From a virus, in IMG/VR virus record IMGVR_UViG_3300031857_000094, positions 18,569 to 82,568 of that record: 64,000 bases of DNA; one strand, 5' to 3'. Position numbers and translations under genes: made by a program. Under the pieces are notes generated by a model that saw only the letters and a program-made list of their open reading frames with translations, did no database searches and had not been told where the DNA came from. This document shows positions 34,839 to 61,772 of the stretch, in pieces. Positions within the stretch are counted from its first letter, which is position 1, and every line of letters begins with the position of its first letter.

Positions 34839-35080
34839 TAGATTGGTAACCTTGATCCAGTGCGTTTGATAAGATTGAGAGTCATAGCTTCTGACTGAAG
34901 CAGCTTACGCATGGCTGGAGTCATGAGCTTCGATACGTTCTCGAACTCCAGTCCAGTCTTTTCACATACATCGGTAATCGCTTCAAGATAGCTCATACCC
35001 TTATCGCTGATACGTTCTTCTACCATAGACACGAATGTATTAGAACTCATAATGCTTGCTACAGCAGCTGTCTCTGTCAT
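34838..35080 (-). CDS. gp33: Late transcription coactivator
   Basis: SYLEAI..CE...E.E.V.KL....K.L..EA..LN. Confidence 0.85.
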   Translation of the reverse strand: MTETAAVASIMSSNTFVSMVEERISDKGMSYLEAITDVCEKTGLEFENVSKLMTPAMRKLLQSEAMTLNLIKRTGSRLPI

Positions 35081-35604
35081 TTATCATATCCTTCATAGGG
35101 AACATTATCTAGAGCGCTGTCGATATCGACTTTGATTCTTCCAGCTTCTGCGATCTCAGCAAGAGTGCGTCCGCATCCAATACATCTTTCACCTGATTCA
35201 TCGAGCTGACAAATCTTAACGCACGGTGACTTCTTAGGAACAGTGATAGGAACAGTTGCCTTACCACCGACGCTGCGGCGCACGATATCTTCGCTGATAG
35301 CTTCTGGATAATAGAGTTCTAGTGCAACACAGTCTTCAACGCAGTTGAACCAATGGAACTCGCCAGGACGGACAGTAGTAAAATCGCCTGCTCGAAGTGT
35401 AGTAATGTCGGTGAGATCATAGTTATTCTTTGCGACATGGATTTCCAACACTCCACTGATGACATAGAATCCGTTCCACTTGTGTTCATGCTTATGCTCC
35501 GAGCAGCGATAGCCAGCTTTGATATTGATCTTATGGAGTTCGACGAGTGGCGTCTGAATAAGAACGCTCGTGTCGCCCCATACTTTTCCAGTGATATTTC
35601 CCAT
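35077..35604 (-). CDS. Cupin domain fused to a DUF1289-like Cys4 domain
   Basis: CSEHKH.HKWNGFYV.SG cupin motif; SPCVKICQLD...CIGCGRTLAEI. Confidence 0.7.
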   Translation of the reverse strand: MGNITGKVWGDTSVLIQTPLVELHKINIKAGYRCSEHKHEHKWNGFYVISGVLEIHVAKNNYDLTDITTLRAGDFTTVRPGEFHWFNCVEDCVALELYYPEAISEDIVRRSVGGKATVPITVPKKSPCVKICQLDESGERCIGCGRTLAEIAEAGRIKVDIDSALDNVPYEGYDK

Positions 35605-35606
35605 AA

Positions 35607-35789
35607 TTAACCTTTCGGAACACAAGCCAGTTTGTATTGATCCCACATTCCACGACCGTATTTCTTTTCTTCGATGAACTTCAGCGCATACATGCAGGAT
35701 TCGTATGTATTGAACTCTTGGAACTTTACATTCTGACCGTTGCCAGCATTGCCAGAAAAGTATGTGATGACTATGAGAACGTAGATCAT
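35607..35789 (-). CDS. Small hypothetical protein
   Basis: 60 aa, ATGA-coupled to kdsA. Confidence 0.55.
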   Translation of the reverse strand: MIYVLIVITYFSGNAGNGQNVKFQEFNTYESCMYALKFIEEKKYGRGMWDQYKLACVPKG

Positions 35790-36613
35790 CGCCTTAAACT
35801 CCGTTTGGAGATATAATCCAATTCTATTAAATCATATAGTAGTTGCTCGAAATTGTCAAGACGAACCATGTTCGGACCATCGCTTGGAGCGGATTCTGGA
35901 TTCTGATGAACTTCAATGAACAGAGCAGCCACGCCAACAGCTACAGCAGCGCGGGCCATCGTAGGCACGAACTGACGTTGTCCGCCAGAGCTTGTGCCAT
36001 TACCACCAGGAAGCTGAACTGCGTGAGTGCAATCCATGATGACACGGTCAGTATATTGCTTCATCACTTCTAGCGAACGCATATCGACCACAAGATTATT
36101 GTAGCCAAACGTTGTTCCGCGTTCAGTGAACAGATACTTATCACAGCCAAACGTTCTTAGCTTCTCAGCTACGTTTGCCATTTCCCACGGAGATAGGAAC
36201 TGACCCTTCTTCACGTTGACTGGCTTACCACTCAGTGCAGCAGCTTGAATCAGGTCAGTCTGTCGGCAAAGGAACGCAGGAATCTGAATGATATCAGCTT
36301 GAACTGCTTCGCATTGCCAAGGTTCGTGAACGTCCGTGAGAACCTCGATTCCTCGAGCACGGACGGCCTCCATTCCGTAAAACGCCTCGTCGAAGCCGCC
36401 ACCTCTACTACTATTCGCGGAACTTCGATTTGCTTTATCGAAAGAGGTCTTATAAATGAAGTTGATTTCTGTATCGAATCTATTACCAACGCTGAAGCAG
36501 ATATCACGCAGTGCAGTAGCCATTTCCACTGCGTGATCCTTAGTTTCAAAAGCACAAGGTCCAGCGATAATGCTCAGGGGTTTATCATTCCCGCAGTTGT
36601 CATAGAAGCTCAT
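35786..36613 (-). CDS. kdsA: KDO-8-phosphate synthase
   Basis: IIAGPC, KTSFDKANRSS, QIPAFLCRQTDL, NVKKGQFL, ERGTTFGYNNLVVDMR and SDGP motifs. Confidence 0.95.
   Translation of the reverse strand: MSFYDNCGNDKPLSIIAGPCAFETKDHAVEMATALRDICFSVGNRFDTEINFIYKTSFDKANRSSANSSRGGGFDEAFYGMEAVRARGIEVLTDVHEPWQCEAVQADIIQIPAFLCRQTDLIQAAALSGKPVNVKKGQFLSPWEMANVAEKLRTFGCDKYLFTERGTTFGYNNLVVDMRSLEVMKQYTDRVIMDCTHAVQLPGGNGTSSGGQRQFVPTMARAAVAVGVAALFIEVHQNPESAPSDGPNMVRLDNFEQLLYDLIELDYISKRSLRR
35831..35859 (-). promoter_or_regulatory. sigma70-type promoter inside the kdsA 3' end
   Basis: TTGACA-N17-TATGAT. Confidence 0.6.
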
Positions 36614-36615
36614 GA

Positions 36616-37200
36616 TTAGTCCCACAGAGAGCGATAGTACCTACCAAACAAACGAAGACCGTTTTGAATACGTTGATTGTGTGCATCTAGTGCATCTTTG
36701 TCCCAACCACTTACTTCGGCATAGAACAGATCATAGTCGTTATCGTTCTTGAGTTGTTCGAACGTCCATACGAGTTCGTCCATCACCCAGTTATAGCGAT
36801 CCTGTGCGTTCGTGTCGCTGTGACCAAAATCAGTTTCATCACCCTTACCGATGTGAGGAACGTCTTCAGCATCTGGATGAAAGAAACCGTGATTCGTGTC
36901 ACGAAGCTGAACCAGCATGGGATGAATGATAAAAGCGAGCGTGTGATCCATGGACCAAGTATCGTAAGGATCAATGCGAACCTTTACATCGCGCTCACGA
37001 TCGCCGATCATTTTGTTGACTGTTGCGTTTAGAACATCTTGAATGATATCGCAGATACGCTCGATGAACTTATCAGTCTTGGTGTATTCACTATCTTGAA
37101 CAGACCAATATGACTTGTCGTGTTTCCACTCCATATACTTGTCGAATAAAGTGTATGCGCTGATATGAGTTGTGCGATAAGGACCAATGTAAACTTTCAT
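36616..37200 (-). CDS. Conserved-type phage hypothetical protein
   Basis: MKVYIGPY..DTWSMDHTLA.II.PML..GLRLFGRYYRSLWD; start moved downstream of the tRNA. Confidence 0.7.
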   Translation of the reverse strand: MKVYIGPYRTTHISAYTLFDKYMEWKHDKSYWSVQDSEYTKTDKFIERICDIIQDVLNATVNKMIGDRERDVKVRIDPYDTWSMDHTLAFIIHPMLVQLRDTNHGFFHPDAEDVPHIGKGDETDFGHSDTNAQDRYNWVMDELVWTFEQLKNDNDYDLFYAEVSGWDKDALDAHNQRIQNGLRLFGRYYRSLWD

Positions 37201-37215
37201 AACAATCTCCAAAAA

Positions 37216-37291
37216 TGGTTCGGGGTGATGGGATCGAACCACCAACCTACGGATTCAAAGTCCGCTGTTCTACCAATTGAACTAACCCCGA
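37216..37291 (-). tRNA. tRNA-Gln(TTG)
   Basis: Cloverleaf; anticodon arm GCGGA-CTTTGAA-TCCGT; TTCGA; encoded CCA. Confidence 0.92.
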
Positions 37292-37863: not shown

Positions 37864-39198
37864 TCACAAAAAATTTTCTAGGAGTTCTACGACATCTGGA
37901 AAGGTTTCTTTCCAGTCTGTACCACGAAGTTTATCTAGGGCGTCGCTTCGCGCGATGAAACTTTTTATATTTTGGGCGCAAACTTCTTCAGAGTCAGAAT
38001 TGTATGTGTTCTTAACATAGCCCAAAGTCATGGCTTTGTGTTGCAGTTTTAGATCAGATTCTTCATATGCTTTGATTATCTTGTCTTTGGCTTTGCGTGG
38101 ATACCATCTCAAATCGTAGCACTTTGGCGAGCGCAGTAATCTAAACGAAAACTTATCGAATCCAAAATTTTGGAAATGAGGAACTACTCTCATAGGAGCA
38201 TACACGTCAAATATGCCTACACAAGAAGTGATGGTACAGAACATATTAGAATGTTTCTTCAATCGAAGAATGTTTTCGTTCAGTTTTCTCCAGCTTGATG
38301 GATATCTGATTAGTTCGTATCTTTTTTCAGTATCATCCACGCTTATACCAAATCGAACTTCTTTGAAGCGATCGAGTTTCTGTAAAATCTTGTCATTGAT
38401 AACAGTTAGATTCGTGTCGTAAACCAATCGTATCTTTTCAGCCTGACCGCATGAAATTAAACGATCTAGCATTTCTTCGTGTGCTGGTTGAAGAAATGGT
38501 TCTCCGCCAGTAATGTATACATGCAACAATCTATTTTTAATTGTTTCGAACTGTTCCCACCAGATCGGAGAATCGTGCCATCGAACAAAATCGCTTTTGA
38601 GTTTGTTTCCTTCAGCGTGGATATGATATTCTTTAGGTCCAACCCAAAACGTATTCTTACCAGTCAAAGCAACATGATCAGAATACCACAGAGTAGAATA
38701 TTGCGGCTCGCATTGAATACATTTAGAATTGCACAGATTGGAAAAGCGAATATCGAGAGCTATCGGTAGATTGCTGATGGATCCATCAGAGTTCATGATT
38801 CTGCTTGCGTCTTCGAGGTTTACTCCGTTTTCTTGATCTTTCATGTGAGTAAACGTTCGACCTATGCGATAAGACAAACCGCCAATAGTTTCTGGTTCGA
38901 AGTATTCTTCCTGTTGCAGTTTTCTGTTGGCATCTTCTTTATCCCAACAGACACGACACACTGGATGTCTTTTGTCTTGGGATTGGAAAAGCCTCAGTTC
39001 TTTATGAAGATCGCTGTTAAGAGCTTGTTCAAATGTATGGGTGAGAATGTTCATCACTTCACCCGTAGATTCATCTTTACCTATTCCATGATCTTTAGTG
39101 TTATCATTTCCAGAAAAACAGCAGATCTTGAAATTACCCGAGGGATTGATTTGAATTGAAGCCCACGGAAGAGCGCAAAAAGTATTCTTAGAAAACAT
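37864..39198 (-). CDS. Radical SAM protein with an N-terminal SPASM/twitch-like domain
   Basis: FCALPW..CC, CRVCW, NLCNSKCIQC (CxxxCxxC) and TGGEPF. Confidence 0.9.
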   Translation of the reverse strand: MFSKNTFCALPWASIQINPSGNFKICCFSGNDNTKDHGIGKDESTGEVMNILTHTFEQALNSDLHKELRLFQSQDKRHPVCRVCWDKEDANRKLQQEEYFEPETIGGLSYRIGRTFTHMKDQENGVNLEDASRIMNSDGSISNLPIALDIRFSNLCNSKCIQCEPQYSTLWYSDHVALTGKNTFWVGPKEYHIHAEGNKLKSDFVRWHDSPIWWEQFETIKNRLLHVYITGGEPFLQPAHEEMLDRLISCGQAEKIRLVYDTNLTVINDKILQKLDRFKEVRFGISVDDTEKRYELIRYPSSWRKLNENILRLKKHSNMFCTITSCVGIFDVYAPMRVVPHFQNFGFDKFSFRLLRSPKCYDLRWYPRKAKDKIIKAYEESDLKLQHKAMTLGYVKNTYNSDSEEVCAQNIKSFIARSDALDKLRGTDWKETFPDVVELLENFL

Positions 39199-39883
39199 TG
39201 CTCTTGCTTCCTTGTTCTTTCCTCCACTCATACTGATCGCGAACGCGAATCAGTTGACGAACATAGTCGTTGCGCTTGCCTTCGAAGCAGTCGAACTCGC
39301 CTTCATCTGATACGATGAGAATGGCAAAGTCATGACATTCAATGCCAGTGTGTTCTTCGAACATGATAGAGTATGCAGTAGCCTGAAGGAAGTAATCTGT
39401 GATCATATCTGCAGTCTTTCTCTTACGAGAAGTCTTGAAGTCGATCACCGTTACTTTGCCATCCCACTCGCAGATTAAGTCCGCGGTCCCTGCGATTCTG
39501 AGGATGTCCGAGAACATCGGCGTTTCAGACGCATAAACAAGCTGTAAGTTTTTGTCAATACATTTCTGAACAATACGAAAACGTGCGAGTGTCGAGGGCA
39601 TGATTTTCTTGGCATCTATCTCATCTCCCAGAATGTATGATTCCATAAGATTGTGAAGTTCAGTTCCACGATTTGCAGCTTGTCTGCTAATCTTGTTAGC
39701 TTCTTCTTCACCGACACGAGCGCGCCACTCAGCGAGAGATTTTTTCTTTTCAGGCTGATCGCCGAGTAGAGTTGTGATTGATGGGTAGACGTTACCATCT
39801 GGAGTTTGATAACGTCTACCGTTTGGAGTGTTTATCTGACGGGCTCTTGGCAAGTCAATATATGGATCATGATTAAATTTCAT
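39188..39883 (-). CDS. Cas4-like PD-(D/E)xK exonuclease
   Basis: YPSITT.L, RGTELH, AGTAD, IDFKTS and Y.LQ..AY motifs. Confidence 0.88.
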   Translation of the reverse strand: MKFNHDPYIDLPRARQINTPNGRRYQTPDGNVYPSITTLLGDQPEKKKSLAEWRARVGEEEANKISRQAANRGTELHNLMESYILGDEIDAKKIMPSTLARFRIVQKCIDKNLQLVYASETPMFSDILRIAGTADLICEWDGKVTVIDFKTSRKRKTADMITDYFLQATAYSIMFEEHTGIECHDFAILIVSDEGEFDCFEGKRNDYVRQLIRVRDQYEWRKEQGSKSNVF

Positions 39884-40973: not shown

Positions 40974-41657
40974 TTATTTAGTATCCTGCTGAAGTACGTC
41001 TGTGAGAGACGGGAAAATCTTTATGATTTCGTCCCATGCTAGGGATGCGATTTCACGGTGTTCTTTCTGTGTTTCGACGCCCATACGCAACTCGCAGTAG
41101 TGAATCCAGCTACGCAGCGTTCCGTTCATATACATACGGGACTGCGTAAGACCCTCAGGAAGCACAGCGCGAGCCTGTTCCTTAGCGACACCATTCTCAA
41201 TAGCCCATTTATATGCATCTTCTGCCGAGGCTTTTACACACTTCTGAACATTTTCCCATTGCATTTGTAGATCATCATCATCAGTCTCAATACTATTCTG
41301 ACGATTCTTCATATCCTGCAAACGAGCTTCGCGTGTAACAAAGCCAAGATCCTTGGTCGGATCAGCATAACGCTGTGAGAACTCTTGGAAAGAAAACGAA
41401 CGATGACGCAGAATTTGACGAGCGATATCACGGGTCGTGTCGATTTCCATGCAGATAGAAACCATTTCGAATGGCGACCAATGCTTGTGCTTGGCAAGAT
41501 ACTTCAACAGCTTGGGAGCTGTCTGGGTATTCATCTGATTGCTGGGATTACTTACACGAGCAACATAAGCAATGAACTCATCAACACCAACGATATATCC
41601 TGTAATAGGATCGCTGATTGTCGGTTTACTTACAGCTACAATTTTCACGCTTTGCAT
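40974..41657 (-). CDS. thyX: Flavin-dependent thymidylate synthase
   Basis: HWSPFE, QILRHRSFSFQEFSQRY and EQARAVLP motifs. Confidence 0.96.
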   Translation of the reverse strand: MQSVKIVAVSKPTISDPITGYIVGVDEFIAYVARVSNPSNQMNTQTAPKLLKYLAKHKHWSPFEMVSICMEIDTTRDIARQILRHRSFSFQEFSQRYADPTKDLGFVTREARLQDMKNRQNSIETDDDDLQMQWENVQKCVKASAEDAYKWAIENGVAKEQARAVLPEGLTQSRMYMNGTLRSWIHYCELRMGVETQKEHREIASLAWDEIIKIFPSLTDVLQQDTK

Positions 41658-48260: not shown

Positions 48261-48289
48261 AGTGTAGCTGGCAAAGGAATAATTGTCAA
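48261..48289 (-). promoter_or_regulatory. sigma70 early promoter
   Basis: TTGACA-N17-TACACT. Confidence 0.7.
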
Positions 48290-48657
48290 GGCCCTTTATC
48301 TTTAATCACCTTATCTTTTTCTCGAATGAACTCGAAGCGCAAACCAATCTGCTTGAACACGTGTTCATGAGTCATCTTATGGATTTCATCCATTTTCTTT
48401 GCTTGTCCGATGAACTTATCGTTCCCACCAAACCAAGCATAATACAATCCATTCTCACGAACGACCTTAACAGGAATGTATGGCATATCGCTCTTGTCGA
48501 AATCGACGATGTCATCTGAAGAAACAGAATCAACAGCCACTGGTCCATCTGGATCAATGCTCATGAACTTTCTAAGAATGAAACGAGCTATCATAATACC
48601 AACGATCCAACTCGAAGCCACGACCAAGACGTTAGCAATATAAGCAGTCGTATCCAT
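48286..48657 (-). CDS. Hypothetical membrane-anchored protein
   Basis: N-terminal transmembrane helix; RBS present. Confidence 0.6.
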   Translation of the reverse strand: MDTTAYIANVLVVASSWIVGIMIARFILRKFMSIDPDGPVAVDSVSSDDIVDFDKSDMPYIPVKVVRENGLYYAWFGGNDKFIGQAKKMDEIHKMTHEHVFKQIGLRFEFIREKDKVIKDKGP

Positions 48658-48670
48658 ACAGTTTCCTTTC

Positions 48671-49453
48671 TTATGCGAAAAACGAATCGAGAGTGCTGCC
48701 GACTTCTTTTCTTGTATCTCTGAGTCTCAGTTCGGCATGACCAGTTGTTTCGCGGATATACATTGTGCAGAGGCCAGGATAACGATCAGCAAGAATTTGA
48801 GCTGACTCGTGGATGCGCTCGCTCGTGCGAGTAACCTGCATTCCGCCATCTTCAGTATAGTATTTAGATTTGACAGTGATATCGTCAAGACGAACAACTT
48901 TGCCGTCCTTGACGTAGTGCTGAAGCGTGCGCTCGAAGTCTTCCTTATCGTCGAGCGTAACAGTCAAGTCTTGATCGTGACGAGTGATGAGACCCCAGCA
49001 CGAACCGATGCAGTAATACAATCCAACTGCTACACGGTTCTTCATGAACATGGCGTTAGCTGCTGCATAAACGCCAAACAGATTAGCACCGTTCTTCTGA
49101 CACTCAACGAATCCACGACAGATAACATCACCTTCAAGATCAGTGACAGGAACCATAGTCTTGTCATCAATCTTCTTCATGACTTCTGACAGATCGTCAT
49201 CAAAGTTCATGACCTGAGTTCCCTCAGGATAGTATCGCTGAATGAAACGACGAATCGCACCCATACCAACCTGACCGATCACGATCTTGTATTGTTCAGG
49301 AAGTTCTTTGCGATAGGTTTCGTATTCTTCTTGATTGCCTACGAATACCGTGATCTTTTCTGCGGGGATATTATGACGCTCGAGCAGCGCGAGAGTTTTT
49401 TCACGCAGCGTTTTTGCGCGGCGATAGCTCGGGATTGCGATTACATAGTCCAT
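48671..49453 (-). CDS. TET-associated glycosyltransferase (TAGT/GREB1-like, GT-A fold)
   Basis: IAIPSYRRA, NFDDD, KEDFERT and GGMQ motifs; same operon as TET/JBP. Confidence 0.8.
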   Translation of the reverse strand: MDYVIAIPSYRRAKTLREKTLALLERHNIPAEKITVFVGNQEEYETYRKELPEQYKIVIGQVGMGAIRRFIQRYYPEGTQVMNFDDDLSEVMKKIDDKTMVPVTDLEGDVICRGFVECQKNGANLFGVYAAANAMFMKNRVAVGLYYCIGSCWGLITRHDQDLTVTLDDKEDFERTLQHYVKDGKVVRLDDITVKSKYYTEDGGMQVTRTSERIHESAQILADRYPGLCTMYIRETTGHAELRLRDTRKEVGSTLDSFFA

Positions 49454-50387
49454 TCGTTTCCCATTTCCATGAATCAAGGATAATCTGTTCTAGATTTCTT
49501 TCGGGCTTCCAGCCAAGAATCTTTTCAGCTTTTTCTGCGTTCGCGACAAGCGAAGGTGGATCACCAATTCGACGTATATCATATTGGAAATTGATCGACT
49601 TGTCAAGAACTCTTTCAGTCGTGTTAATAAGCTCTAGCATCGACGTGCCGTTGCCAGATCCAAGATTGAATGGCTCAGCACATCTGTGGCTTTCAAGATA
49701 CTGCAAAGCCAAAACGTGGGCGTGGGCTACGTCTTGAACATGCAGATAGTCGCGAACACAAGTTCCATCTTTCGTTGAGTAGTCATTACCAAAAACCTTG
49801 AATGGCGTATTGTTAATGATAGACTTCAACAGAATCGGAACAGCGTGTGTTGGCGTCTTTGAGTTGTAGCCGTGATTCTTACCTGAGCCAGCGACGTTGA
49901 AATAGCGCAAAGAAACGCTGCTGATTCCATGAGCATGATATACTGCTTCCAGCATCTGCTCTGACCACAGCTTCGTTTGTCCATAAGGATTGAGCGGAGT
50001 AGTTGTGCGATTTTCGTCGATCTTCGATGCAGAAGCATCATAGACTGCTGCGCTGCTGCTGAACACAATCTTGACGTCAGTTTCCTTAGCGTATTCAAGC
50101 AGACGCAACATCGAACACATATTGTTCTGATAGTATTTCAGCGGATCTGCTACGCTTTCGGGAACGACATGGCTTGCTGCCATGTGAATGATAGCGTCGA
50201 ACTTTTTGTAGTATGAATGAAGCCCGAACTTGTTGAGATCAAAGTTTAAAACTTCGACATCGAGCTTCTTAGTCCAATCATTGATTACACGGTCAAAAAC
50301 CGTAACCGTGTAACCGTAGTAGAGGAGTTCATCGACAACAGCACTGCCGATGAACCCACTTCCTCCAGTCACTAGAACATGTTTCAT
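49401..50387 (-). CDS. galE: UDP-glucose 4-epimerase
   Basis: VTGGSGFIGS, VPESV.DPLKYY.NN, FSSSAAVY, YGQTK, LRYFNVAG and DGTCVRDYLHV.D motifs. Confidence 0.9.
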   Translation of the reverse strand: MKHVLVTGGSGFIGSAVVDELLYYGYTVTVFDRVINDWTKKLDVEVLNFDLNKFGLHSYYKKFDAIIHMAASHVVPESVADPLKYYQNNMCSMLRLLEYAKETDVKIVFSSSAAVYDASASKIDENRTTTPLNPYGQTKLWSEQMLEAVYHAHGISSVSLRYFNVAGSGKNHGYNSKTPTHAVPILLKSIINNTPFKVFGNDYSTKDGTCVRDYLHVQDVAHAHVLALQYLESHRCAEPFNLGSGNGTSMLELINTTERVLDKSINFQYDIRRIGDPPSLVANAEKAEKILGWKPERNLEQIILDSWKWETNGLCNRNPELSPRKNAA

Positions 50388-51793
50388 GCAAAGAAATCTT
50401 CAAGAGAGGTTTGATTAGTACCTTTACCAATTTTATTTAGAACTTCTTCTGCTTCATCTGTGAGACCATTGTTTCCAAGATACTCACCCCATTCTTCCGT
50501 ATCCCACATTCCTGGCGATACTCCGTTCCAGTTTTCTTGCCAGAGCGGATGTTCTTTATTGTTTCTGCGCATATAGACGAAGTTCTTACGAGCTTCTTCA
50601 TACTTCTTAGAGCCACACTCAAGCATTGACTCACGGAAATACATCACGACTGACATACGCTCGAACCCTTCTTCGTAGTCGAACGCAGGAGAGTTGCTGT
50701 GAATACGATGAGCGTTCATCATAATCATGTCGCCAGCACGAATATCAGCAGCTACCCGAAACTCAGGGAAGCAAAGATAAAAGCCGTCATAATGCTTGCC
50801 ATTGTCAAGGACGAGAAGATTACTAAAGCCTCGAGGGTTTTCATGTGACTCCCATGATTCGCATAGATCGCCAACGTCACGATGCGCTGCTGTGCGGAAG
50901 TCGCGATTGATTGTTAGAGTTGTATATGGTGTATTACCAATCTGCCAGTCTTTACCTAGCTTCTGCATTGCTTCCATCTGACCAGCAAAGCGAATCGGAA
51001 TGTTTTCTTGGAACACGCGCGATGCTTCTTCGAACAGAGGCAGAGCTGATTCATACAGCTCGTGATGACTTGCGCTCCAGCCCGTTTCGCGACAGAATGG
51101 AATGCGTGGATAACGATCCATGAATCCACCAACGCCAGAACGAACGCCGTTCGCATAAGTTGTATCTGAAATCATGTCATTCAGAATATGATCTGCGGCG
51201 AGCTTACGATCCTTAGACGTTTTATCCTTGACTGAGTCGTACCAATCGTCGAACACGAAGTCCTTCGACTTGTTTACAATCCAAATCGCACCAGCACCAA
51301 TTTCACCTTTGTTCTTGTCTGCTCCAGATCCACGACCTTGCAATGGCTTATCTGGAGTTGTGCTGTAGATTTCATGCAGCATATCTTCGCCAGTAATAGA
51401 AAGCGGCGAACCCTTAGCCATATACTGAAGAACAGCTTTTTCGCGCTGCGTCACCCAGCGACGAGAACCTTCGCCGTCTGGTAACTTCTGATAAGCTGTG
51501 TCGCGTTCGATACCAGCAGCAAGCCCACGATTGTCAGACATGATCGCACCAGAACGAAGAGCAGTATAAGCTGCGTCTGTCATTTCCTTCGAGAACACAC
51601 CTTTACGGAACTTGCAGAGCAAATTCTTTTCAGAATGCGTTTCGCCGTTTGCGATTTGCAAAGGAGTCAGTGGTTCATAAACATCAGTATCTTCAGTCAG
51701 CACTAGATCATAGCAATCATGATCTAGGAACTTACCTAGCATATGATCCATCTTGTTAAGATTAGAGTGTTCGAGATAGATTTTCTTTACCAT
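50384..51793 (-). CDS. TET/JBP-family 2OG-Fe(II) dioxygenase
   Basis: TT.TINRDFRTAAHRD.GD (HxD), GD....NAH..HSN and R.SVVMYFRE motifs. Confidence 0.85.
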   Translation of the reverse strand: MVKKIYLEHSNLNKMDHMLGKFLDHDCYDLVLTEDTDVYEPLTPLQIANGETHSEKNLLCKFRKGVFSKEMTDAAYTALRSGAIMSDNRGLAAGIERDTAYQKLPDGEGSRRWVTQREKAVLQYMAKGSPLSITGEDMLHEIYSTTPDKPLQGRGSGADKNKGEIGAGAIWIVNKSKDFVFDDWYDSVKDKTSKDRKLAADHILNDMISDTTYANGVRSGVGGFMDRYPRIPFCRETGWSASHHELYESALPLFEEASRVFQENIPIRFAGQMEAMQKLGKDWQIGNTPYTTLTINRDFRTAAHRDVGDLCESWESHENPRGFSNLLVLDNGKHYDGFYLCFPEFRVAADIRAGDMIMMNAHRIHSNSPAFDYEEGFERMSVVMYFRESMLECGSKKYEEARKNFVYMRRNNKEHPLWQENWNGVSPGMWDTEEWGEYLGNNGLTDEAEEVLNKIGKGTNQTSLEDFFA

Positions 51794-51820
51794 AGGCCTC
51801 TCCTCCTAAAACTGTTATCT

Positions 51821-52399
51821 CTATGTATGCTTCAGGAGATTTTCATATGTGTTGAAATAGACGTTTTCACCAGCAATCTTAGTCACATTTTGGATACTAG
51901 GGAAAATAAAAATGAAATCAACTTCTGGATGCTTCCGCACAAGCCACTGAAGATAGTTCACACGACCAGGATTGTCTCCCGCGCTCGCGCGAGTATCAGC
52001 GCCATAGTTGTCTGTTCCATCGTAGATGTTGGAAAGAAGTTGATTGCCATCTTGAATCAAAAAGTCAAAACCAAGACAGATAATCTGATTGTATTCCATC
52101 TTGATCGCTTCACGCATAGCATTCATGCCAGCATTACTACGAGGACGACCAATGTTACATTCAGCAGGTTCCCAGCGTTCATCAATCGGTGGTACGATGA
52201 AACGCTTTGAAGGGAAGTCGCTGCCTTCTATCTCGGTAATGATACCATCATCAATACTAACGAGGAAATCAGGAAAAGACCTGTCAGGGTAATCACGATA
52301 AAGCGCATTGCAACCAAACACCGTTCCATATGGTTTCAGTTTAGTAAGATCGAATCCCTTGCGACTCGTACCATTACCGATGATAAAAGCTGTGTTCAT
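51821..52399 (-). CDS. Rossmann-like protein resembling the CstII-type sialyltransferase / MptE-like family
   Basis: AFIIGNGTSR, GCNALYRD, SNAG..A and I.CLGFDF motifs. Confidence 0.55.
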   Translation of the reverse strand: MNTAFIIGNGTSRKGFDLTKLKPYGTVFGCNALYRDYPDRSFPDFLVSIDDGIITEIEGSDFPSKRFIVPPIDERWEPAECNIGRPRSNAGMNAMREAIKMEYNQIICLGFDFLIQDGNQLLSNIYDGTDNYGADTRASAGDNPGRVNYLQWLVRKHPEVDFIFIFPSIQNVTKIAGENVYFNTYENLLKHT

Positions 52400-52977
52400 G
52401 CTACTTCTTTCTTAGTAGAACCTTTCGGACGACCGCGCCCACGCTTGACAGGAACTTGAGTTTCATCATACTCGAGAAACGTTGAGTTGTCAAGTTCAAC
52501 CTCCTGTACAATAGGAGCTGGCTGTTCGATTGGCGTTGCAACCTTACGACCCCAGGCTTCCCACAGATTAGGGAATGCTTCAGCAATCGCTTCGGGCATA
52601 ATCTTGATCTGACGATTTTTCATACGAAGGAGCAGCTTAGCATCACGCGGATCAATGGACTCAAGCACCTGAATGAACAACTGTTCGCGCTTGAGCTGCT
52701 TGACTTGAGCACCTTCAGGGCTATCGACGAAATAGATCAGCTTCTTGCATTCAATGTAGAAACGTCCTTCCTGATCAGCTGCATCAAACAGAGGGCGATA
52801 CGGCGGATCACCATCAGGAAGCAACCACTTCACGCCTGGATCCATGCCATAACCTAGAACAGCCTTAAGAGCATAAGAGCTATGCAGCTTTAGGAACTCA
52901 GCTTGCTTTTCTGCAGTCGTTTGTGCTTCAATCTTTGAAACAATATTAGCCATACATTTGTTTGTATCAAGGGCCAT
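52396..52977 (-). CDS. Conserved-type T4-like hypothetical protein with a C-terminal AT-hook
   Basis: WLLP.G.PPY, KREQLFIQVLE.I.P.DA and KRGRGRPKGS. Confidence 0.7.
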   Translation of the reverse strand: MALDTNKCMANIVSKIEAQTTAEKQAEFLKLHSSYALKAVLGYGMDPGVKWLLPDGDPPYRPLFDAADQEGRFYIECKKLIYFVDSPEGAQVKQLKREQLFIQVLESIDPRDAKLLLRMKNRQIKIMPEAIAEAFPNLWEAWGRKVATPIEQPAPIVQEVELDNSTFLEYDETQVPVKRGRGRPKGSTKKEVA

Positions 52978-53275
52978 CATTAATCTCCACTGGTTCGTAT
53001 GCAATTACATTTATAAACTGTTTCTTCTGTTCGTCATCCCACGCAGCGAGATAATCGTTTTCCTGATCGAACAACTTGAGATATTCTTCTTCACTGATTT
53101 CGCGATGATCGATGATTGCAGTAGGATCAAGATGCTTCTGACTGAACTCCTTGAACGTAGTATCGTTTTCGCGCCACACAACTTCATCGAGCGCATCAAT
53201 GACATTGTTTTCGACACGCACGACATAACGAATGCGGAACGAAGAAAGAACATCGACCATTACGAGCTTAGACAT
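52967..53275 (-). CDS. Hypothetical protein
   Basis: V.VD.LSSFRIRYVV; EFSQKHL. Confidence 0.65.
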   Translation of the reverse strand: MSKLVMVDVLSSFRIRYVVRVENNVIDALDEVVWRENDTTFKEFSQKHLDPTAIIDHREISEEEYLKLFDQENDYLAAWDDEQKKQFINVIAYEPVEINDGP

Positions 53276-56523: not shown

Positions 56524-56552
56524 ATCATAGCACATTGGCTGTTAATTGTCAA
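56524..56552 (-). promoter_or_regulatory. sigma70 early promoter
   Basis: TTGACA-N17-TATGAT. Confidence 0.75.
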
Positions 56553-57550
56553 GGCTTGTTTGCCATAGAAGCTAGGAAATCCCGCCACTGACTAGCCCGA
56601 ACGTCCCAATTATAGAACGAGTCGAAGTAGGCTTTTTGAAACTTGAGTCGTTCTTGATTGAATGGCGCTCTGTATTCCTTAATGACCATAGCCAATATGC
56701 CAGCGAACACATTGGCGTGCTTGTTATTGTTTTCTGTCCAGCCATACTGAACTGCGAAGTTGGCGCATGTTTCTGGAAGCGCAGCCAATGTTGGGCAAAT
56801 AACATTGCAGCCAGCGCTCATAGCCTCGATGACTGAGATACCAGAAGTTTCTGGCCAGATGCTGGGATATGTATAGATGTGCGCTTTCTTGAGAGCTTCG
56901 CGAATAACAGAGTTTGGCTGCCATCCATGATAAGTCATTTTGCCGTTGCGTTTGATACGTTCAAACAGTTCCTTGTATGGTTCATCGCGCTGTGGCCATC
57001 CGTAGATACCAAACGATGAATAGACATCAAGATGGAAGTCGAGCCCCTTATCAGCTAGGAACTCTACGACTGGAACAAGAAGCTCGAGTCCACGATGCGG
57101 AGTTGTATGATAGATCAGATTGATCGTGCCTTCAGGCTTTTCGTGAGGCTCGATAGGAACGATCGCGTTCTGAAGAACGATACCCTTGTCGTATGGTACT
57201 CCAAGTCCGAGATTGTAAGTAGACTGCTGATAGTGTGAAACGAATACGAGTTTCTCGAATCGGTCAAGACTCTTGGCGTCCTTCAGATGTTGTGACTCTG
57301 GATCGTCGAAAGTATCGTGTAGCCACAGAATGTTTTTCTTTGTCTTACTGATGCTATCTTCGCGCACGCGCGAGCAGATGATATTGAACTGATCAGTCAG
57401 CTCGTTTGGTAGTCGTGCCATCAAGCCTTCATACATCTGCTCAGTTCCACCCTTGGAACCAAGATGTGCATATGTACCATTCTTAGCTGGCTCAAGATCC
57501 TTAGCCTTAGTCGCGCTTTCTTTGAGTCCAGAGATATTCAATTTAGTCAT
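56549..57550 (-). CDS. GT-B glycosyltransferase (GT4-like)
   Basis: GGTE, LWLHD, TPHRGLE and YPSIWPETSGISVIEAMSAG motifs. Confidence 0.88.
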   Translation of the reverse strand: MTKLNISGLKESATKAKDLEPAKNGTYAHLGSKGGTEQMYEGLMARLPNELTDQFNIICSRVREDSISKTKKNILWLHDTFDDPESQHLKDAKSLDRFEKLVFVSHYQQSTYNLGLGVPYDKGIVLQNAIVPIEPHEKPEGTINLIYHTTPHRGLELLVPVVEFLADKGLDFHLDVYSSFGIYGWPQRDEPYKELFERIKRNGKMTYHGWQPNSVIREALKKAHIYTYPSIWPETSGISVIEAMSAGCNVICPTLAALPETCANFAVQYGWTENNNKHANVFAGILAMVIKEYRAPFNQERLKFQKAYFDSFYNWDVRASQWRDFLASMANKP

Positions 57551-59303: not shown

Positions 59304-60821
59304 TTATTCGCTCAACATTTTCTGCTTATATGTATGTATCCTAGATTCGTAGTTTTTTCTTAATGCACCAAAAACCGCTCCACTCTTATTCTGATCTGCT
59401 AATCTTGCCAGCTTTACAGCGTTTTCTACTTTCAATCCTACGTTGTGCAAGAACGGTAGCGAAAACGCAGCTATCGTTGAGTTCGTTTTCATATTGAATG
59501 TATAGGCCAACTTCATAAACTCATCAGATTTTCCCCAAGGACTAGTCCAGGTGCCAGGATCATTTCCTGATTTTTCATAAACGCTGAATGGATTATTACG
59601 ACTCGCGTTAATTTCATTCTTGGTTTCATTACCTTCAAATAGGATCAACGAAGTGAACGTGTAGTGATCAATGTAATGTTTTCCTTCCTTAGAATTCAAC
59701 CATTCGTATGTTCTATACAAGTCCTCTGGTGTTTCGTACGGAAGTCCCGAAATGAACGAAGCAGTTGTAACGCAGTTATCGCCAATCACATCTCTGAATA
59801 TATCAAAAGATTTCATCAGCTTATCTTTGTCTGTCATCTTACCGATGCTAGGCCCAGCTTCCTTCTTTAAGGACTCGATACCGAACGTAGCTCCAGCTAT
59901 GCCTGAATCAAGCAGTAGCTGAGCTTGTTCTTTCCTCTTAATTGTATCAAGCCTAACGTATCCAGTCCATCGAATATCTACGCCAGTTTTTTCTCTGATC
60001 TTAATTAAGAACTTCAACTTTTCTTCATAGTCGTTCATGATGTTGTCAGTCAGTAGGTACATTCTTGTTTTGAACTTTTCATAGTTCGTTAGAAGTTCAC
60101 GCTCGAAGCTCTCGTATGAGCGCATGTACTCAGTTTTCTTTTTACCCAAAGCGGCATAGTTGCAAAACTGACAACTGAATATGCATCCAGCAGCAACTTC
60201 AGTAGAGAGACTTTCGTCATCCATGATGTGATCTTCAAGTATAGGTGTAGATGCACAATCACTGAAGTCTACGATGTTAGAAGTATATGCTATCTTAGAA
60301 CCACGAATTTCGGTGAATTCGATAGTTTGATTTTTAGCCAACTTGTCTATGACGTCGATGTTATTACCTAAAACGTAATAGTCAACATACTTATCGAGAA
60401 CGTCAATACCCCAAGCATATCTTTTTGATCTTTTGAATTTAGATTCAATGATTTCCCATCCACCAAGCAGAATAGGAATCTGTAATCTTTTACATAACGA
60501 AAACGTTTTTATGAAAAATTGGAAAGTATCTAATCCCCAAGCATGCCCTTCTTCTTCTTGATCGGGAAGTTCTGATACGTTCTTTCGAAAAGTCGTATTG
60601 ATGAAAGACGTGCTAAAACACGCAATAGACTGTTCGCCTTGCGTGAAGTTTTCTATAATCTGTTTGATTTCTTCTACTGAAAACGAAAGACAGTTATGAA
60701 TTTGTTTGACTTCATAACCAACTGATCGAAGCATATATGAAAGTCTAAGATTAGAAGCAGATTTCATGAAGTTGAAACCTGTTCCATTGTTTTCAGAAAA
60801 GATAATGATCTTACGAATCAT
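59304..60821 (-). CDS. Radical SAM protein, B12-binding-like class
   Basis: GCIFSCQFC, FGIESL and FISGLPYET motifs; N-terminal Rossmannoid region. Confidence 0.8.
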   Translation of the reverse strand: MIRKIIIFSENNGTGFNFMKSASNLRLSYMLRSVGYEVKQIHNCLSFSVEEIKQIIENFTQGEQSIACFSTSFINTTFRKNVSELPDQEEEGHAWGLDTFQFFIKTFSLCKRLQIPILLGGWEIIESKFKRSKRYAWGIDVLDKYVDYYVLGNNIDVIDKLAKNQTIEFTEIRGSKIAYTSNIVDFSDCASTPILEDHIMDDESLSTEVAAGCIFSCQFCNYAALGKKKTEYMRSYESFERELLTNYEKFKTRMYLLTDNIMNDYEEKLKFLIKIREKTGVDIRWTGYVRLDTIKRKEQAQLLLDSGIAGATFGIESLKKEAGPSIGKMTDKDKLMKSFDIFRDVIGDNCVTTASFISGLPYETPEDLYRTYEWLNSKEGKHYIDHYTFTSLILFEGNETKNEINASRNNPFSVYEKSGNDPGTWTSPWGKSDEFMKLAYTFNMKTNSTIAAFSLPFLHNVGLKVENAVKLARLADQNKSGAVFGALRKNYESRIHTYKQKMLSE

Positions 60822-61683
60822 CAGTCGTCAATCTACGAACGATTTCTTGCACTGGTAATAACTCATTTGTAAAATCGATTCCAGTTCCAGCAAATATCAC
60901 ACCTCTTTCTAGATTTCCAGACACTCCCTCATAAAGTCTTTTGTCGATAGTTCTTCTTCTTTTCTGTTCTGGTTCAATATCTCGATAGATTAATCCCTGT
61001 AATCCAGAAAGTTTCATTCTAGAAAGATCGTTAGAAGTTTTTTCTAACATCCTTTTCTTTGTTGAGATATCTATCGAGCTTTCTTCACTCATTGCAAAAA
61101 GAGTGCCTATCGAAACTGCAAGAGCGCCCGAATTCATATAATAATCTATTTGAGCTTTGGAAGCTATTCCGCCAGATGGTATCAACTTATCTGCTGAAAT
61201 GAATTGTTTTTGAATGTCAAAAAAATCTTTAGTTTTAAGATTATGACTATAGCCTGCAGACTCAGTTCCGTTAAGAACTAGTGCATCAAATCCAAATGTT
61301 TTATTATTAACAATCGCAACTTTCCTCATAATGAAACAATCTAGTTCGCGTAATCGTTCAATAAAGTTTCTATCATTGTTGAGATCAGTATGTATCAACT
61401 CACAATGACTGATCTTATACTTTTCAATCAACTTTAATATGAATGTTTCTAAGAGCGAACTATCAGGAATAGCTACTCCTAAAATCAAACGGCAGTGACC
61501 CATTTCTTGAGTGAACTTATCTAATTCTGATGGTAGCTTTTTGAGCTGAGATTCAAATGGAGCTGTAGTTAAACTTGGTACGATACCAGCTTTGGCACAA
61601 GCAATAGCTAAATTGATATCACTTACGCAAGTCATAGCTGAACACGTAATAGGATGTTCATATCCAAAAAAATCTCTATACAT
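60811..61683 (-). CDS. Nitronate monooxygenase-like FMN TIM-barrel oxidoreductase
   Basis: PI..SAM..VSD..LA.A...AG, G.ESAG, SGGI and GTLFAMSEES motifs. Confidence 0.75.
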   Translation of the reverse strand: MYRDFFGYEHPITCSAMTCVSDINLAIACAKAGIVPSLTTAPFESQLKKLPSELDKFTQEMGHCRLILGVAIPDSSLLETFILKLIEKYKISHCELIHTDLNNDRNFIERLRELDCFIMRKVAIVNNKTFGFDALVLNGTESAGYSHNLKTKDFFDIQKQFISADKLIPSGGIASKAQIDYYMNSGALAVSIGTLFAMSEESSIDISTKKRMLEKTSNDLSRMKLSGLQGLIYRDIEPEQKRRRTIDKRLYEGVSGNLERGVIFAGTGIDFTNELLPVQEIVRRLTTDDS

Positions 61684-61698
61684 AATGATCCTATTAAA

Positions 61699-61772
61699 TG
61701 GCACCAGTGGAAGGAGTCGAACCCTCGCCTGCGGTTTTGGAGACCGCCGTGCTACCGTAACACTTCACTGAT
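61699..61772 (-). tRNA. tRNA-Trp(CCA)
   Basis: Anticodon arm GCGGT-CTCCAAA-ACCGC; encoded CCA end. Confidence 0.92.

Follow-up and report, generated by a model that had tools for sequence, protein, structure and literature searches.

We describe a gene cassette at positions 48671-51793 of a 64,000-nucleotide stretch of viral DNA (the window), which comprises bases 18569-82568 of the 82,568-bp IMG/VR record IMGVR_UViG_3300031857_000094 (hereafter G000) and comes from a T4-like myovirus whose genome is about 50% complete in that record according to CheckV. Three overlapping genes encode a TET/JBP-type dioxygenase, a GalE-type uridine diphosphate (UDP)-hexose 4-epimerase and a TAGT-family glycosyltransferase. 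The cassette is real and intact, and it represents a pathway class that has already been published; what we add is that it occupies an accessory island with swappable contents, and that the dioxygenase and the glycosyltransferase, but not GalE, end in polymerase-type tails. On the strength of these sequence features, we think it probable that this is an accessory cassette for post-replicative DNA hypermodification, in which clamp-docked enzymes would convert thymine (T) to a hexosyl-hydroxymethyl base.

In the pathway that we envisage, the flavin-dependent thymidylate synthase ThyX would make ordinary T, which is incorporated into DNA. The TET/JBP Fe(II)/2-oxoglutarate dioxygenase would then oxidize a 5-methylpyrimidine in DNA to its 5-hydroxymethyl form, most likely T to 5-hydroxymethyluracil (5hmU) and less likely 5-methylcytosine (5mC) to 5-hydroxymethylcytosine (5hmC), while GalE would convert host UDP-glucose to UDP-galactose and/or UDP-N-acetylglucosamine to UDP-N-acetylgalactosamine (UDP-GalNAc). 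The TAGT enzyme, a glycosyltransferase (GT) of the GT-A type, would move the hexose onto the hydroxymethyl group and so produce a galacto-type analogue of base J. Both DNA-acting enzymes would sit on the gp45 sliding clamp and work immediately behind the fork, probably coupled to replication. A preliminary description of this DNA had likewise proposed that a 5-methylpyrimidine is hydroxylated and then glycosylated with a sugar that the epimerase supplies; its gene identities and general reading stand, with galactose and GalNAc both candidates for the sugar. What the sequences and models show are the gene identities, folds, catalytic residues, tails and variability of the cassette, and the substrate base, the sugar and clamp binding are inferred from them.

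An intact cassette of three overlapping genes

The preliminary description had reported three co-oriented, overlapping genes of the TET/JBP, GalE and TAGT families. We confirmed both the layout, with all three genes on the minus strand, and the identities, since each protein scores above curated cut-offs and keeps its catalytic residues:

50384-51793, minus strand: TET/JBP-type 5-methylpyrimidine dioxygenase (5mYOX), 469 amino acids, identified by Pfam, phrog and an AlphaFold2 (AF2) model
49401-50387, minus strand: GalE-type UDP-hexose 4-epimerase, 328 amino acids, identified by the TIGR01179 equivalog
48671-49453, minus strand: TAGT-family GT-A glycosyltransferase, 260 amino acids from the ATG at 49453, identified by Pfam TAGT

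The open reading frame (ORF) of the transferase opens at a TTG at 49477 (268 amino acids), and the ATG at 49453 is the likely true start. The dioxygenase and GalE genes overlap by 4 nucleotides, and the GalE and TAGT genes by 53 (77 if the TTG is used); in the window, as in the related viral locus L013, the final 18 codons of GalE extend into the TAGT gene, which uses a different frame.

The 469-residue protein is a TET/JBP-type dioxygenase, with oxidation of T or 5mC as its predicted activity. It matches Pfam Tet_JBP (PF12851) over residues 234-388 with 49.8 bits against a cut-off of 34.9, and phrog_24024 at 3e-101. A long N-terminal part precedes the catalytic core, which spans approximately residues 207-402. 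No PDB entry matched by sequence at E values up to 10. The AF2 model, built on 40 homologues, has a predicted local distance difference test score (pLDDT) of 90.7. Structurally it matches human TET2 best (Z 21.4; 270 residues aligned, root-mean-square deviation 4.2), followed by NgTET1 (Z 19.3), CMD1 (Z 18.6) and CcTet (Z 18.4), whereas AlkB-type enzymes and FTO reach Z scores of at most 14.4. Foldseek also matched the model to CcTet (E 2e-11). With this Pfam score, and with TET2 and NgTET1 as the best structural matches, the oxygenase falls within the TET/JBP family rather than outside it. All 40 aligned homologues have H304, D306 and H365, and at least 90% have R379; these residues correspond to an HxD...H iron triad and the arginine that binds 2-oxoglutarate.

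A phmmer search over 1.84 billion representative sequences returned 1,131 relatives of the dioxygenase. Those that align over its full length form about 20 clusters, and most of the others are proteins of about 300 amino acids that match residues 207-402 alone. Two proteins join the relevant activities in a single chain: P0206 (1123 amino acids) fuses Tet_JBP to a TAGT-like stretch that scores 27.1 bits, just below the 27.5 cut-off, and P0200 (1281 amino acids) fuses Tet_JBP to an Amino acid:DNA transferase (AADT) domain. These fusions provide independent support for the idea that TET and TAGT or AADT enzymes work together on DNA.

The transferase matches Pfam TAGT (PF20691) with 52.3 bits against a cut-off of 27.5, as well as phrog_25200 and phrog_842; a PDB sequence search at E values up to 10 returned no match. 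It carries R12, D85-D87 (in FDDDL) and E171-D172-F173 (in KEDFER), of which R12, D86, D87 and D172 are invariant in eight sequences. This pattern corresponds to the R...DDD...EDY/F GT-A motif that has been aligned with the base-J glucosyltransferase of T. cruzi, JGT (Pyle 2023, bioRxiv 10.1101/2023.12.21.572611). A point that weighs against direct transfer to the base is that the only biochemically defined TAGT in the literature that we read, the T2/T6 beta-glucosyl-HMC-alpha-GT, adds a sugar to another sugar and not to a base.

Thymine as the likelier substrate

The preliminary description took ThyX as the supplier of ordinary deoxythymidine (dT), and the gene is indeed present:

40974-41657, minus strand: ThyX, flavin-dependent thymidylate synthase, source of ordinary thymidine monophosphate (dTMP); Pfam Thy1, 150.5 bits

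ThyX is also encoded in G001, a 90%-complete record of a related phage in which 79 of the 99 G000 ORFs have a homologue (median identity 74%). Neither G000 nor G001 contains a ThyA-family enzyme or hydroxymethylase (PF00303), and a hydroxymethyl base would thus have to arise on DNA, post-replicatively.

Thymine had been put forward as the target because no C5-methyltransferase (C5-MTase) was visible in the window. None is present there or elsewhere in the 82,568-bp record (no PF00145 match), but with half of the genome missing, and with a C5-MTase in G001, this absence is a weak argument. Thymine is probably right nonetheless, on other evidence. In the type C loci described below, a TET about 80% identical to that of the window is paired with AADT and a P-loop kinase, which are known T-hypermodification machinery (O'Toole 2026, PMC13229309). 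In addition, PF00145 was not found in any of five complete genomes from cultured phages that carry a TET homologue (DLP_6, C48C1, Cr30, S-CBWM1 and HTVC112P). The dioxygenase core is also closer to a ParB-linked TET, being 39% identical to that of HTVC112P, which directly follows a ParB-like gene, than to a C5-MTase-linked one, being 26% identical to that of Melnitz phage, which adjoins a C5-MTase; these identities serve as a proxy for placement of the dioxygenase in clade C. A ParB_N domain (PF02195) was found neither in G000 nor in the records of five relatives. More generally, only 6% of 5mYOX pathways are reported to co-occur with a C5-MTase (O'Toole 2026).

The most serious alternative, though one we regard as unlikely, is that the substrate is cytosine: an unlinked phage C5-MTase, its gene lying in the half of the genome that the record lacks, would make 5mC, TET would oxidize it to 5hmC, and TAGT would glycosylate the product, as in published clade A/B systems. 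Several observations favour this alternative over thymine. G001 encodes a C5-MTase (176.9 bits, at 51010-52053; region L023, 49510-53553) between a peptide deformylase and a 227-amino-acid ORF resembling S-adenosylmethionine (SAM)-dependent methyltransferases, and homologues of this C5-MTase lie directly beside a TET-like gene in Methylophilales Melnitz phages. The enzyme and its flanking genes have no match in G000, a record of about half the genome that may lack this region. Every epimerase/GT cluster reported as experimentally rebuilt in Pyle 2023 acted on 5hmC. Finally, Burke 2021 (PMC8256090) notes that P-loop kinases also occur in contigs with C5-MTase and TET, which makes the AADT/kinase pairing less than specific to T, and that T and 5mC oxygenases are not told apart by any residue rule.

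Set against this, the G001 C5-MTase lies about 65 kb from the G001 TET, whereas the active pairs reported by Burke 2021 are adjacent. Similar methyltransferases occur in cyanophages S-B05, S-B43 and S-CRM01, which are absent from the 13 records in which a TET match was found, and both the low identity of the Melnitz TET over the core and the lack of PF00145 in the cultured TET phages count further against cytosine. Overall, T appears to be the likelier of the two bases, with 5mC a credible second.

The epimerase and the donated sugar

The middle gene of the cassette encodes an orthodox GalE. It scores 317.2 bits against a cut-off of 262.3 for TIGR01179, the GalE equivalog, and matches Pfam Epimerase at E 1e-51; all other models of sugar-modifying short-chain dehydrogenases/reductases (SDRs) fell far below their own cut-offs. 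Its top 32 PDB sequence matches are all UDP-glucose/galactose 4-epimerases, the epimerase domain of GAL10 included. The N-terminus contains GGSGFIGS, a GxxGxxG motif, and S112, Y135 and K139 align with S124, Y149 and K153 of E. coli GalE (sequence taken from NC_000913).

That the presence of a dedicated epimerase points to a UDP-galactose or UDP-GalNAc donor has an experimental precedent in print, and the idea is thus not new: the epimerase-paired, "subclass II" GTs are reported to be inactive without their partner epimerase, and to place hexose, N-acetylhexosamine or hexuronic acid on 5hmC (Pyle 2023). We assign GalE the role of donor supplier because those GTs needed their epimerase. Which of the two galacto-configured sugars it would supply is less clear. 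At the gatekeeper position (Y299 in E. coli, C307 in human), an aromatic residue marks an enzyme restricted to UDP-glucose/galactose and a small Cys or Ser marks a bifunctional one (PMC5349592). The window epimerase has Leu280 here, as do three relatives; Leu fits neither class, which leaves galactose and GalNAc both as candidates. In addition, N199 of E. coli GalE is replaced by His.

These two substitutions also speak for a different donor. It could be that DNA is the acceptor but that the SDR acts on UDP-glucuronic/galacturonic acid or UDP-xylose/arabinose, or runs towards UDP-glucose, and the range of sugars obtained from published epimerase-paired clusters (Pyle 2023) is compatible with this. 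We consider it quite improbable, however, given the score above the GalE equivalog cut-off, the failure of the other SDR sugar-enzyme models and the uniform identity of the closest PDB matches.

Polymerase-like tails on the dioxygenase and the transferase

Both enzymes that would act on DNA end in short motifs resembling the C-terminus of phage DNA polymerases:

50387-50407, minus strand: dioxygenase C-terminal tail SLEDFFA, candidate gp45-binding epitope (the protein ends TSLEDFFA)
48674-48694, minus strand: transferase C-terminal tail TLDSFFA, candidate gp45-binding epitope (the protein ends STLDSFFA)

A strict form of the tail pattern occurs at 2 of the 99 ORF C-termini in G000, those of the dioxygenase and TAGT, and at 0 of 26,105 internal positions. 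In G001, a looser form was found in 3 of 221 ORFs, where about 0.11 would be expected, and these three encode an 839-amino-acid DNA polymerase (SSLEDFFS), the TET (TLEDYFA) and a TAGT-like GT (TLDSFFE); the strict form is absent from all 48,976 internal positions. The DNA polymerase of Stenotrophomonas phage DLP_6 (ATLDSFFA) ends in exactly the seven residues of the window TAGT tail, TLDSFFA, which is conserved in the TAGTs of relatives. As judged from their terminal residues, the tails co-vary with the polymerase tail across the C48C1 lineage (polymerase TLEDFFG, TET SLEEFFV), the DLP_6 lineage (polymerase TLDSFFA, TET TLGDFFV) and the Cr30 lineage (polymerase DLSSLFD, TAGT DLSKLF).

The distribution of such ends among cassette proteins is selective. 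They are found on TETs, on TAGTs, on the HAD-like protein of type B loci and the 257-amino-acid protein of type C loci (see below), and more weakly on AADT. The nucleotidyltransferase fusion, the kinase and GalE have none; in the window, the GalE C-terminus shows no clamp-like tail, which fits its acting on a small molecule.

In T4, the DNA polymerase gp43 ends in EKASLDFLFG, its gp45-binding end (PMC6212786), gp55 and gp33 have interchangeable C-terminal ends of the gp43-like kind (PMC2988020), and the alpha-glucosyltransferase is reported to co-purify with, or bind, gp45 (PMC13216743, citing Sommer 2004). T4 ligase also has a gp45-binding epitope. G001 encodes a gp45-type clamp and the gp44 clamp loader; the clamp was identified by blastp with the annotated DLP_6 and Cr30 clamps, the PF02916 clamp profile having matched nothing, controls included. 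Because their ends match and co-vary with polymerase tails, we suggest that the dioxygenase and TAGT are probably tethered to the gp45 clamp, a reading that has good support at the level of sequence. Certain observations temper this suggestion: it is drawn from primary structure, the TETs of type C loci, of several other loci and of S-CBWM1 have no tail, and the polymerase and clamp of the window phage fall in the missing half of its genome. In S-CBWM1, the tail and a PolB match are both absent.

Elsewhere in the window, a twitch-domain radical SAM protein (37864-39231, minus strand; 274 bits) ends in ELLENFL, a loose fit to the regular expression used for the tails.

An exchangeable island between conserved borders

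With the TET as query we found 21 related viral loci (L002-L022), and a second scan with the family of p192, the protein encoded next to TET, gave 80 loci. The upstream block RNase H - MazG - p102 - DUF6433 - p192 - TET is conserved in every locus with sufficient upstream sequence, whereas the interval from TET to p123 varies. The borders of this interval in the window, and the gene beyond p192, are as follows:

51821-52399, minus strand: p192, conserved 192-amino-acid protein, upstream border of the island; AF2 pLDDT 89.4, with a sialyltransferase/Maf/MptE-like fold
48286-48657, minus strand: p123, conserved small protein of 123 amino acids, downstream border of the island, found past the variable cassette in relatives
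52396-53004, minus strand: DUF6433 protein, ending in an AT-hook-like RGRGRPKG stretch

The genes that follow TET are:

Window and L013: GalE, TAGT
L003, L005 and L021: GalE, a 259-amino-acid weak TAGT-like gene, TAGT
L002 and L004: partial GalE at the contig end
L006, L014, L016, L017 and L019 (type B): 520-amino-acid nucleotidyltransferase/APH fusion, HAD-like protein, TAGT-like GT
L007-L010, L020 and L022 (type C): 257-amino-acid protein, AADT (PF18724, 74.6 bits), Ploopntkinase3 (46.2 bits)

Within type B, the L006 contig ends after the HAD-like gene and L014 has an extra GT1. Type C accounts for 6 of the 21 loci, and the TET there is orthologous to that of the window. The downstream content of four loci (L011, L012, L015 and L018) was not assigned to a type. 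GalE is shorter in the relatives with the extra 259-amino-acid gene than in the window and L013. Because the end of GalE runs into TAGT in these two and GalE is shorter where the middle gene is present, their arrangement fits a deletion of that gene, as far as the gene boundaries indicate.

A further arrangement is seen in Caulobacter phage Cr30 (L025, 8985-12432), where TET is followed by a 409-amino-acid protein, a TAGT-like GT whose C-terminus resembles a polymerase tail, and an inositol-1-phosphate synthase. Such a gene set suggests a further donor chemistry.

The p192 scan distinguishes core from accessory genes. DUF6433 lies ahead of p192 in 79 of the 80 loci and RNase H in 68, while TET follows in 11. 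Of the 12 loci with a p192 of at least 74% identity, TET is present in 10; in the other two, L032 and L040, p123 comes directly after p192. Because L032 and L040 lack the island and the downstream genes are swapped elsewhere, we conclude that TET and the genes behind it make up an accessory island, located at a fixed hot spot. By the same token, p192 is a core gene and not a TET partner; p192 and DUF6433 are a widespread core pair in T4-like aquatic phages, usually after RNase H.

The idea that p192 or DUF6433 is a partner specific to TET, or an activator resembling ParB, was rejected on account of the linkage of p192 to DUF6433 rather than TET and of the arrangement in L032 and L040; neither protein has a ParB match in Pfam or NCBIfam. 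The p192 model matches the Maf GT 5mu5 (Z 11.6), CstI 2p56 (Z 9.4) and MptE/TPK-like proteins (Z 7-8), with CstII as the top Foldseek match (E 1.8e-3). On account of the MptE/TPK-like matches, a role for p192 as a pyrophosphokinase activating 5hmU was considered and then dropped, again because of its linkage to DUF6433.

The hypervariability of the island also bears on whether the cassette acts on DNA at all. The GT and GalE could instead glycosylate a protein, such as one of the virion, or remodel a host glycan, with the adjacency of TET being incidental in a swap hot spot. The window does contain other glycan genes (KdsA, a GT1 glycosyltransferase and the sialyltransferase-like protein), and the nearest TAGT homologues in cultured phages, at 32-40% identity, belong to mycobacteriophages (Acadian, Donny, Baee and others) and Arthrobacter phages, where some adjoin a gene annotated "glucosaminyl deacetylase" or "oxidoreductase" and no TET was seen in the surrounding annotations. 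We nevertheless find this explanation highly implausible, as the GT bears a polymerase-type clamp tail and has retained the R...DDD...EDF motif also found in the base-J glucosyltransferase, TAGT-like GTs follow TET in type B loci, in S-CBWM1 and, at a distance of 3 kb, in Cr30, and the two domains are fused in P0206.

Taking DNA hypermodification as the function, the tails and the island together invite a broader proposal, which we put forward tentatively as a possibility rather than an expectation. In T4-like phages, a thymine dioxygenase and its decorating enzymes may ride the sliding clamp by means of polymerase-mimicking tails, building directly behind the fork an analogue of base J that carries galactose or GalNAc. 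The downstream genes would form an exchangeable module, specifying a sugar, a self-activated sugar or an amino acid, that sets the final chemistry, and in T4-like phages the gp45 tail would take the place of the ParB-like clamp by which T-dioxygenases of other phages are activated.

Relation to known systems

Phage TETs with GTs and epimerases have been published (Burke 2021), as have phage thymine dioxygenases, for which GTs are reported as the commonest neighbours and sugar epimerases are noted (O'Toole 2026). The closest described counterparts are the subclass II clusters of 5mYOX, epimerase and GT-A (Burke 2021; Pyle 2023, cited as Cell Rep 2024 in PMC13229309). They have the same three enzyme types in a tight unit, the R...DDD...EDF GT-A motif and an epimerase as presumed donor supplier. 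The rebuilt clusters described there have an adjacent C5-MTase and act on 5hmC, whereas the window cassette has no adjacent C5-MTase. Polymerase-like tails are present on both DNA-acting enzymes in the window, while gp45 and the clamp appear in the passages of Pyle 2023 that we checked as neighbouring genes only.

Compared with the phage thymine dioxygenases of O'Toole 2026, the window dioxygenase is longer (469 amino acids, against about 290-300 for the enzymes characterised there). Its lack of a neighbouring C5-MTase and its association with a GT are as in the ParB-independent clade C2. Some of its orthologues occur with AADT and a P-loop kinase, as in the ParB-dependent clade C1, and its ParB-adjacent relative is the HTVC112P enzyme compared above. 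The candidate DNA-tracking partner here would be gp45 and not a ParB-like CTPase clamp.

The logic of the cassette is that of trypanosomatid base J (JBP1/2 and JGT), in which T is oxidized to 5hmU by TET/JBP enzymes and a GT-A then adds a hexose. Base J carries beta-glucose from UDP-glucose with no dedicated epimerase, however, whereas the donor in the window is probably galacto-configured; and JBPs carry a J-binding or SNF2 domain where the window enzymes carry clamp tails. The T-even phages offer a different comparison. Like the window phage they are T4-like, and the window GT belongs to the Pfam family of the T2/T6 beta-glucosyl-HMC-alpha-GT, which puts a second sugar on an existing one. 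The T4 alpha-GT is the precedent for a DNA glycosyltransferase that binds gp45 (PMC13216743), and the window tail resembles the SLDFLFG of gp43 (PMC6212786). T-even phages make hydroxymethylcytosine before replication with a deoxycytidylate (dCMP) hydroxymethylase, none of which was found in the record of the window phage.

In the literature that we searched, we found neither clamp tails on 5mYOX or TAGT enzymes nor a demonstrated glycosyl-5hmU product in a phage. The "clamp" of O'Toole 2026 refers to ParB/KorB, and the supplement to that paper, which mined IMG/VR, may list this contig or its relatives. Post-replicative glycosylated hydroxymethyluracil has been predicted for phages, and a compact unit of three genes, one of them an orthodox GalE, makes it easy to demonstrate the product and identify the sugar. 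The shared tails suggest explanations, open to test, for how a dioxygenase and a transferase working after replication get to all sites in a rapidly copied genome, and for why certain phage T-dioxygenases depend on a ParB-like clamp and others on no helper at all. Finally, the loci in which different cassettes follow one orthologous dioxygenase form a comparison set for the arms race of anti-restriction and anti-glycosylase functions.

Other features of the window

Among the proteins encoded in the window are gp32, gp59, RNase H, PhoH, ThyX, a deoxynucleoside monophosphate (dNMP) kinase and MazG; the gp32 is about 60% identical to that of cyanophages and of Pelagibacter phage HTVC008M. The 3.1-kb cassette stretch itself has no blastn match among 50,697 phage records.

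A possible regulatory element lies within the cassette:

49606-49578, minus strand: sigma-70-like promoter match TTGACA-17-TATGAT (11/12), inside the 3' part of GalE and upstream of the TAGT start

Identical TTGACA-17-TATGAT matches occur on the coding strand at 52493-52465 and 55038-55010 (both minus). Promoter-like sites are not enriched (18, versus 13.2 +/- 3.5 in shuffled sequences), and we treat this match as a lead only.

A B12-binding-type radical SAM protein (59304-60821, minus strand) lies beside a nitronate-monooxygenase/FabK-like enzyme (60811-61704, minus strand); for these two, as for the twitch-domain radical SAM protein, no phage role is obvious. A few kb from the cassette, a GT1/GT4-family glycosyltransferase is encoded at 56549-57550 on the minus strand (Pfam Glycos_transf_1, 42 bits), adjoined by a 378-amino-acid protein with no family match. 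KdsA, the 3-deoxy-8-phosphooctulonate (Kdo-8-P) synthase, is encoded at 35786-36625 on the minus strand and scores 361 bits against an NCBIfam equivalog cut-off of 242; its neighbours at 35077-35646 and 36616-37245 are a cupin/DUF1289 protein and a 209-amino-acid protein with no family match. Together, KdsA and the sialyltransferase-like p192 hint at an ulosonic-acid pathway.

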